Positions 21,760 to 21,816 of a stretch of DNA of 42,991 nt are shown here, piece by piece; positions within the stretch are counted from its first letter, which is position 1, and every line of letters begins with the position of its first letter. Source of the DNA: Escherichia phage hz69. The stretch is from the sequence record ON556632.1; one strand, written 5' to 3'. The notes under the pieces are model-generated. The model was not told where the DNA came from and did no database searches. It saw only the letters and a program-made list of their open reading frames with translations. The translations under genes were made by a program, and so were the position numbers.

Positions 21760-21788
21760 TTGCACACCCCAATATAATAGGGTACTAT
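21760..21788 (+). promoter_or_regulatory. class-2 promoter copy A: TTGCAC - 17 bp (ACCCCAATATAATAGGG) - TACTAT
   Basis: 32-bp element TTGCACACCCCAATATAATAGGGTACTATTCA at 21760-21791; RBS GAGGAA and ATG 21817 follow. Confidence 0.7.
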
Positions 21789-21816
21789 TCACATGTAACT
21801 TACTGAGGAAATAATT

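Follow-up and report, generated by a model that had tools for sequence, protein, structure and literature searches.

In Escherichia phage hz69 (sequence record ON556632.1), a 32-bp sequence at positions 21760–21791 recurs almost unchanged elsewhere in the genome, with its promoter spacer conserved as closely as its hexamers, and the question is what holds all 32 bp constant. We analyzed the whole 42,991-nucleotide (nt) sequence of this phage, hereafter the window. The initial annotation had interpreted the repeat as a promoter element that is probably read by a phage factor and that places "moron" genes and the earliest genes under one control logic. Here we propose that the 32-mers are sigma70-type promoters carrying a 14-bp operator, AATAG-N4-CTATT, which also occurs at other promoters of the phage, and that the phage's own 71-amino-acid (aa) XRE protein binds this operator and represses the promoters; on the comparisons described below we give this reading a probability of about one half.

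The repeated promoter element contains a 14-bp dyad

The sequence TTGCACACCCCAATATAATAGGGTACTATTCA was found to be exact at two loci, copies A and B, while copy C deviates from it by a single mismatch (G>A), in agreement with the near-perfect repetition at three loci first described. None of 100 dinucleotide-preserving shuffles of the sequence gave any 32-mer match (0/100), and none is expected by chance. The diverged fourth copy, D, also proved to be real; it is 25/32 identical, keeps the hexamer frame and has a changed spacer without the ACCCCAAT block. The copies lie, as proposed, in the same orientation directly 5' of genes without another obvious promoter, and A, B and C head units that begin after a terminator or on the strand opposite their neighbors. 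The distance to these genes had to be corrected, because the element does not lie 20–35 bp upstream of the ribosome-binding site but ends about 11–16 bp 5' of the Shine-Dalgarno sequence, with 22–25 bp between the end of the 32-mer and the start codon.

The parse into a -35 hexamer, a 17-bp spacer and a -10 hexamer was retained in part: TTG...17...TAnnnT is invariant in 26 orthologous copies, but the hexamers TTGCAC and TACTAT match the sigma70 consensus at only 3/6 and 4/6 positions, and a consensus scan therefore omits these sites (class II below). The window is about 92–97% identical to genomes of Kagunavirus (Guernseyvirinae; K1G/K1H-like virulent E. coli siphophages), and the same regions match more than 200 records of Jerseyvirus (Salmonella) at lower identity. 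A search of related genomes, which the initial annotation had suggested, recovered the 32-mer or close variants from 260 phage records, all of them Guernseyvirinae and usually with two to four copies per genome. Conservation of the spacer exceeds what sigma70 needs, and a phage-encoded reader, as originally supposed, is the best explanation.

The 3' half of the 32-mer harbors the dyad AATAG-GGTA-CTATT. In an unbiased palindrome census covering all 5-mer arms and gaps of 0–8, AATAG-N4-CTATT was the top palindrome by far, both in the window and in one Jerseyvirus genome; by chance 0.04 exact sites would be expected in the window, and seven are present. They comprise copies A–D and three others, which start at 3026, 5464 and 9120. 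Three more sites with one mismatch each (2982–2995, 37930–37943 and 30581–30594) are conserved in relatives. All ten sites are intergenic and overlap sigma70-type promoter elements, be it the spacer, the -10 or the -35. In class I the dyad lies in the spacer at about -25 to -12, in class II over the -10 at about -19 to -6 (the 32-mer copies; the dyad at the XRE gene promoter is also over the -10), and in class III over the -35 at about -40 to -27; a fourth register was found in a Jerseyvirus genome (position 15637).

Alignment of class I (n=18) and class II (n=26) sites from seven Kagunavirus genomes revealed that TTGAC, AATAG and CTATTATA-T are invariant in class I, with a variable N4, and that TTG, AATAG and TACTATTCA are invariant in class II, with the first two N4 bases varying. 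The survey of Kagunavirus operators was extended to 43 genomes or loci (nine genomes and 34 independent IMG/VR loci), and the 34 loci alone contained 93 exact sites with at least 16 N4 variants and practically one arm pair, AT-AATAG...CTATT-CA. Each arm falls outside the hexamers in at least one class, so arm conservation is not due to sigma70. The register varies, always on the core promoter, while the arms stay invariant, which argues for an operator rather than a contact of RNA polymerase or sigma factor, and we conclude that the dyad is very likely a protein operator. The unit that matters is accordingly the 14-bp palindrome, shared with at least six further promoters, and not the 32-bp element as first defined; nor is its distribution limited to morons and the earliest genes, for the operator is also found at the replication, XRE and late-operon promoters and hence nearly genome-wide.

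Two further observations concern the dyad itself. At 5469–5472, within the operator at 5464–5477, N4 is CTAA in the window and its reverse complement, TTAG, at the orthologous site of most relatives, so that the center looks inverted within the palindrome. In addition, a one-mismatch dyad, TATAGTATGCTATT, at 32637–32650 overlaps the start codon of the head-morphogenesis gene 31568–32644; relatives have kept this dyad, and it was counted as one of the PHIRE "promoters" of phage Golestan, but no convincing -35 or -10 was seen beside it.

XRE as the candidate reader

Several predicted DNA-binding proteins had been named as possible readers. Comparative data favor XRE and disfavor the AlpA-like protein, while the product of 22208–23338, listed as a helix-turn-helix (HTH) protein, gave weak matches to calcineurin-like phosphoesterases instead, and its orthologues are annotated as metallophosphoesterase or DNA repair exonuclease. 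Among proteins of solved structure, XRE is closest to 434 Cro (71 aa; full-length alignment, E=1.5e-6), the 434 repressor and P22 C2. Its closest temperate relative is Cro of the lambdoid Klebsiella phage GZ7, to which it is 45% identical, and the GZ7 cro gene adjoins 434-type operators such as ACAAA-CAAG-TTTGT, which possess the same 14-bp 5-4-5 layout. The GZ7 cI–cro intergenic region (7920–7990) holds three 434-type 14-bp operators, ACAAGAAACAAGGT, ACAAACAAGTTTGT and ACAAATAACCTTGT. In the window, two operators (2982–2995 and 3026–3039; 44 bp from center to center) lie between the XRE gene and the divergent class I promoter. The XRE gene is variously annotated as "repressor" or left unannotated in relatives.

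XRE homologues are present in all three genera compared, with about 95% identity within Kagunavirus, 49% in Jerseyvirus and 39–41% in Cornellvirus. The recognition-helix segment reads VSQGAINQLA in 42/43 Kagunavirus, VSQSLITHLA in 13/14 Jerseyvirus and VTQSAISHLC in 6/6 Cornellvirus sequences. Kagunavirus operators carry an outer dinucleotide CA/TG in one arm of nearly every site (51/124 arms in the nine genomes, 90/93 IMG/VR sites), and Jerseyvirus operators have it in 0/18 arms and 0/19 sites. In Cornellvirus AATAG-N4-CTATT is wholly absent, and the orthologous promoters carry ATTAG-N4-RTAWT; this motif was first put together by inspection and afterwards checked against another, related Cornellvirus genome, so that its statistics (7 sites vs 0.31 expected, and 6 vs 0.16 in the second genome) are only partly independent. 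Two further copies flank the Cornellvirus XRE gene. These comparisons suggest that the XRE helix and the operator variant change together between the genera, one to one. If the dyad is an operator, XRE is likely to be its reader, and given where the operators lie, repression as the outcome of XRE binding can be expected with high confidence.

The promoter-operator sites and the two candidate regulators are collected in Table 1. The three class I promoters are the best sigma70 matches of the left 12 kb (10–11/12). At the XRE promoter the arm mismatch (AATAT-GG-TACTAT) creates an extended -10, TGnTACTAT (here TGgTACTAT), in a promoter without a -35. The mismatch at the late site (ACTAG) is kept in both Kagunavirus and Jerseyvirus, the second class III site points to the late genes downstream of island B, and copy D sits 5' of a DUF551 gene (40649–40960).

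Table 1. Coordinates of the operator-bearing promoters, candidate regulators and associated units in the window
Feature	Position	Strand	Details
AlpA-like HTH_17 protein	1..171	+	56 aa, starts at its HTH; disfavored rival reader
XRE gene	2736..2951	-	71 aa, HTH_3 E=3e-13, 434-Cro-like; monocistronic, counter-oriented; own terminator 2727–2747
XRE promoter-operator	2980..2997	-	TTAATATGGTACTATTCA; dyad 2982–2995, over -10
Class I	3016..3044	+	TTGACA-17-TATAGT; operator 3026–3039; divergent from XRE gene
Class I	5454..5482	+	TTGACT-17-TATAGT; operator 5464–5477; 5' of gene for single-stranded-DNA-annealing protein, 5540–6172
Class I	9110..9138	+	TTGACA-17-TATAGT; operator 9120–9133; 5' of 9173–9427
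Copy A, class II	21760..21791	+	-35 TTGCAC 21760–65; -10 TACTAT 21783–88; core AATAGGGTACTATT 21776–89
Island A	21817..23893	+	counter-oriented; predicted to be driven by copy A
Class III	30561..30594	-	one-mismatch operator AATAGTTGACTTTT 30594–30581 over -35 TTGACT 30589–84; -10 weak, TAAGCT 30566–61
Copy B, class II	30656..30687	+	operator core 30672–85; predicted to drive island B, 30713–31094
Class III, head of late operon (packaging/structural)	37910..37943	-	TTGACT-17-TATATT; one-mismatch operator ACTAGTTGACTATT 37943–37930 over -35
Copy D, class II	41107..41138	-	TTGTAC-17-TACTAT; core 41109–22; inside leftward operon
Copy C, class II	42516..42547	-	core 42518–31, N4 GATA; predicted to drive leftward early operon starting 42493

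Proposed mode of action

In the mechanism we propose, host RNA polymerase of the sigma70 type would start at about ten promoters, and XRE, made from its extended -10 promoter, would accumulate and fill the operators. The idealized operator would be TGAATAG-N4-CTATTCA, laid in the 32-mer over the -10 of TTGCAC-17-TACTAT; an XRE dimer would grip its two arms of 5–7 bp in successive major grooves, leaving the central 4 bp unread, and the bound protein would shut out RNA polymerase. The early, replication and cassette units would be turned down first, and XRE's own promoter last, at a higher concentration. How fully a site is occupied would depend on its arm mismatches, its flanks and the composition of its N4, and the mismatched site over the -35 of the late promoter would be the weakest, or else be regulated differently. 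In its widest form, in which one 71-aa Cro-type protein governs all or nearly all promoters, at least ten, in a subfamily that is strictly virulent, the proposal seems to us rather unlikely. Were it true, the registers, the conserved arm mismatches and N4 would set a repression hierarchy that amounts to the temporal programme or to compensation for rising genome copy number, and the operators at island junctions would be common to overlapping divergent promoters, with one dimer switching two directions.

Several observations weigh against repression by XRE. The class II hexamers are weak (7/12), and such promoters might need an activator; moreover, a single repressor on all promoters, including the late one, leaves the temporal switch unexplained. 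The covariation of helix and operator comes from three clades only and is inseparable from shared ancestry, and when IMG/VR was searched for XRE proteins intermediate between the known variants, nothing came up beyond these three clusters, which stay discrete, and three unrelated phages. The XRE proteins of Kagunavirus and Jerseyvirus are 49% identical and differ at 4/6 recognition-helix positions, yet the 10-bp core of their operators is the same; lambda cI and Cro are a precedent for different proteins with a common operator. In Cornellvirus, the exact-palindrome census found no clean dyad, and the motif of that genus, defined post hoc, is only weakly palindromic. Finally, a literature search for binding, footprint or start-site work on Guernseyvirinae gave nothing usable. 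The RNA sequencing paper on the Kagunavirus K1B4 (PRJNA939978; reads also under PRJCA028359) analyzes expression by gene and in coarse classes, and its "early" HTH gene _008 is not assignable to XRE or to the AlpA-like protein.

Alternative readers and functions

Instead of XRE, the AlpA-like HTH_17 protein or an unrecognized early protein could read the operator. The AlpA-like protein was found only in Kagunavirus and Jerseyvirus (444 records), which are the two genera with the AATAG core, and two Cornellvirus genomes gave no match to it even at E<=10; in an alignment of the window protein with its Jerseyvirus counterpart, 89% of positions are identical and the HTH is the same. However, its helix region occurs in Kagunavirus in five variants (VTRRTLNNWL, VTRQTINNWL, VTRQTINNWI, VSTMTLNRWL and VSPMTLNRWL) against invariant operator arms, and the last of these has lost both arginines while the operators are unchanged. 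Furthermore, Cornellvirus keeps a homologous promoter motif without an AlpA-like protein, the proximal promoter of the AlpA-like gene has no operator close by, and proteins of the HTH_17/excisionase type usually bind direct repeats as monomers rather than dyads, all of which makes this reader improbable. The AlpA-like protein has no relative of solved structure recognizable by sequence. A host transcription factor would couple phage transcription to host physiology, and the geometry of the dyad does resemble the TrpR operator ACTAG-N4-CTAGT and the OxyR half-sites ATAG/CTAT; the motif core is common to E. coli and Salmonella phages, and the class III site at the late operon has one TrpR-like half-site. 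But TrpR requires CTAG in both halves, and no enterobacterial factor is known to have the consensus AATAG-N4-CTATT. Since Jerseyvirus and Cornellvirus both grow on Salmonella and their motifs differ, the motif tracks the phage lineage and not the host, and a host reader is quite improbable.

The site might also serve less as an operator than as a loading site of the Q/AlpA type, at which RNA polymerase would take up a processive antiterminator and so get past the numerous intrinsic terminators of the genome. The elements bound by P. aeruginosa AlpA and lambda Q lie between the -35 and the -10 (PMC7969949, PMC9371919), and in the window terminators follow closely after several promoters (from P38061 to 37960 and from P30589 to 30381). 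P. aeruginosa AlpA, however, is a protein of eight helices and over 140 aa, with a ring segment at its N-terminus and the HTH at its C-terminus, and recognizes an asymmetric hexamer, GGGACG, at a fixed position, whereas the window protein begins at its HTH with only 56 aa and the site is a dyad in three registers that include the -35 and the -10. A loading site is hence very improbable. The AlpA-like protein as a Q-like antiterminator was ruled out on architecture. Least of all do we expect a promoter for a phage RNA polymerase, or 32-mers that are recent duplications or gene conversions with a functionless spacer. PHIRE reports the motif, the fBC-Eco01 paper credits a phage RNA polymerase, and copies A and B are 32/32 identical within the genome; against this, no RNA polymerase gene is annotated in the collinear phage Bas73 or in two Cornellvirus genomes, the sites have sigma70 hexamers at canonical spacing, and the arms stay the same between genera and between promoter classes that did not arise from one another by duplication.

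A possible second promoter on the opposite strand

Operator and forward hexamers do not account for the whole 32-mer, as ACCCCAAT, the upstream half of the spacer, lies outside the palindrome. Read on the other strand, it gives a -10, TATATT (AATATA in the spacer), and then a G-rich discriminator, GGGG(T/C)G. The opposite strand of copies A, B and C could thus carry a second promoter, with its start in the complement of TTGCAC, and the 32 bp would then be two promoters and one operator superimposed. This would complement the operator model and explain the remainder of the element. Consensus scanning returned GTTACA-17-TATATT at A (21799–21771), facing the tail genes, and TCGATA-17-TATATT at C (42508–42536), facing the AlpA-like/primase operon, each scoring 9/12 compared with 7/12 for the forward promoter. 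The block ACCCCAAY is kept in 19/19 copies of the A/B/C type and gives way to variable sequence in seven copies of the D type, and copy D is the only one that lies between co-directional genes instead of in a divergent intergenic region. The 12-mer CCCTATTATATT occurs both in the -10 region of the late promoter P37938 and, read on the opposite strand, in copies A and B. Late transcription meets the bidirectional terminator at 23897–23916 before it reaches island A, and for this reason the tail genes plausibly need a promoter within 21653–21816, although terminators in the late operons of siphophages are often partly read through. The Jerseyvirus island-A site has good promoters both ways, TTGACG-17-TATTAA and TTGCAT-17-TATTAT. 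On the other hand, the opposite-strand -35 is unconserved, being GGTGTA at A in 4/7 Kagunavirus genomes and poor at B, and at C it overlaps the conserved forward leader, which makes its conservation uninformative. Functional divergent promoters at A and C are therefore put forward tentatively, with somewhat less than even odds.

Gene islands, leaders and other features

The ends of the window adjoin each other in relatives, indicating that it is a complete, circularly permuted genome. In the map taken from the annotation of Bas73, the replication module runs rightward; an early module of small genes runs leftward and is followed by the lysis genes and by a long leftward packaging/head/tail operon, which two small opposite-strand islands break up. 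The large open reading frames (ORFs) of the window correspond to primase-helicase, DNA polymerase, tape measure, tail and tailspike proteins. An Rfam search of the window gave no match.

The description of the two islands as morons holds for their promoter–cargo–terminator architecture and variable cargo, but not for independent expression, given that they use the phage's own operator in a virulent phage. Island A has promoter A and a terminator at 23897–23916, and island B has promoter B and a terminator at 31083–31103. Among 13 genomes, the window included, tblastn detects the two small genes of island B in the window alone, and the first gene of island A (21817–22143) occurs in three; the protein specified by the latter has 108 aa and an N-terminus that is hydrophobic and signal-like, MRKLVLALGFMSFATFGSPC. 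The island positions are kept in all three genera with other cargo, and the XRE gene has the same counter-oriented cassette form. Because they employ the phage's own operator-promoter, the islands are better called variable early-type cassettes wired into the phage circuit. The terminator at 23897–23916, AAGGCCCC-N4-GGGGCCTT, is bidirectional and separates island A from the tail-tube gene. The class III site at 30589 is separated from a spanin-like gene at 30337 by another terminator (30381–30362, minus strand), so the P30589 transcript would be about 200 nt long unless read through.

Copies B and C have the common leader ATCGAAACGAG that had been described, and P37938 carries the same motif in the form ATCGACAACGAG. 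The leader, ATCGA(A/C)AACGAG, is located at 30692–30702 (plus strand) at copy B, at 42512–42502 (minus) at copy C and at 37903–37892 (minus) at P37938, beginning about 6–7 nt after the -10 and thus probably at the transcription start. Related leaders are AAACGAGAGGAG at P3016 (3053–3067, plus) and AAACGGGAGGAG at copy D, and the leader motif is also present in Jerseyvirus (genome position 38403). Copy C additionally contains the start of an ORF of 111 codons (42540–42875, plus strand), which is annotated as a hypothetical protein in relatives, e.g. Bas73_0055, and crosses a terminator hairpin at 42630–42650; it is probably not a gene and rather a long leader or regulatory region 5' of the AlpA-like gene.

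Just 5' of the late promoter lies a mini-unit (37950–38061, minus strand) with TTGACA-17-GATACT (10/12), followed by a C/U-rich transcript of about 75 nt that starts with AAAUCACCUCCUGUUCC and ends in a strong terminator, CCCGGCCCUGACCCAGCCGGG with U9; it has no Rfam match. Its hexamers and transcript are invariant in nine Kagunavirus genomes, with a varying promoter spacer, and the transcript includes CACCUCCU, which equals the anti-Shine-Dalgarno end of 16S rRNA. The mini-unit is a candidate for a small RNA or for a unit resembling lambda PR' or 6S.

Comparison with known systems

The repeat itself is already known. Table S4 of Golestan lists seven PHIRE 20-mers that equal these sites, among them TAATAGGGTACTATTCATTA, TAATAGCGAACTATTCACAT, TAATATGGTACTATTCACAT, TAATAGGATACTATTCACTT and GAATAGGCTACTATTCATTT, and in the fBC-Eco01 paper seven "phage RNA polymerase" promoters are summarized by the consensus tgAATAGTa-ccTATTat-T. 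Both treat the motif as a promoter string, and the dyad, the registers, the link to XRE and the -35 TTGCAC are unmentioned. A literature search on transcription regulation in Guernseyvirinae found no paper; the operator reading appears to be new, and it belongs to a classic kind of system, that of Cro-type operators and dispersed repressor sites. Of the coliphages and Salmonella phages used in therapy and biocontrol, Kagunaviruses and Jerseyviruses are some of those isolated most often, and the label "repressor" on the XRE gene raises concerns about lysogeny. If XRE repression is true, the retention of a Cro-like gene by a virulent phage would have an explanation, the motif would no longer be credited to a phage RNA polymerase, as it has been in print, and phage engineering would gain a compact set of co-regulated promoters together with an orthogonal repressor/operator pair. 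The model supplies ten mapped operator-promoter sites and one 71-aa candidate protein, and is easily tested.

In lambdoid phages, morons are promoter–gene–terminator cassettes between conserved genes. Islands A and B are similar in having their own promoter and terminator, in lying between conserved late genes and in being counter-transcribed with variable cargo. They differ in that their sites are conserved across three genera, their promoters bear the phage's own operator and there is no prophage state.

Phage phiC31 has conserved inverted repeats at its early promoters, and mycobacteriophages L5 and Bxb1 have stoperators. The likeness lies in one predicted regulator, many copies of a short site throughout the genome and highly similar early promoters. 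In those temperate phages, however, the sites serve immunity repressors, whereas the phage studied here is virulent. Stoperators are, moreover, asymmetric, bound by monomers and block elongation (PMC9283540), while the sites described here are dyads confined to promoters.

The closest parallel is found in 434, P22 and lambda. XRE is a small HTH_3 protein of the same length as 434 Cro, and the operators of these phages are likewise 14-bp dyads with 5-bp arms and a freely varying 4-bp center that lie over core promoter elements, with two sites in the regulator's own divergent control region. Lambda Cro turns down the early promoters in lytic growth, and the expected role of XRE runs parallel to this. 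In contrast to these systems, the half-site is AATAG and not ACAA, three registers are used, and binding by XRE is a prediction; the sites are spread over at least ten promoters rather than clustered in OR and OL, and there is no cI partner, integrase or lysogeny module in this strictly virulent group. The annotation of the collinear genomes (Bas73 and the two Cornellvirus genomes) shows neither a cI nor an integrase nor a second repressor, and Guernseyvirinae are described in the literature as strictly lytic, which suggests that the sites work like a Cro operator set and not like an immunity region.

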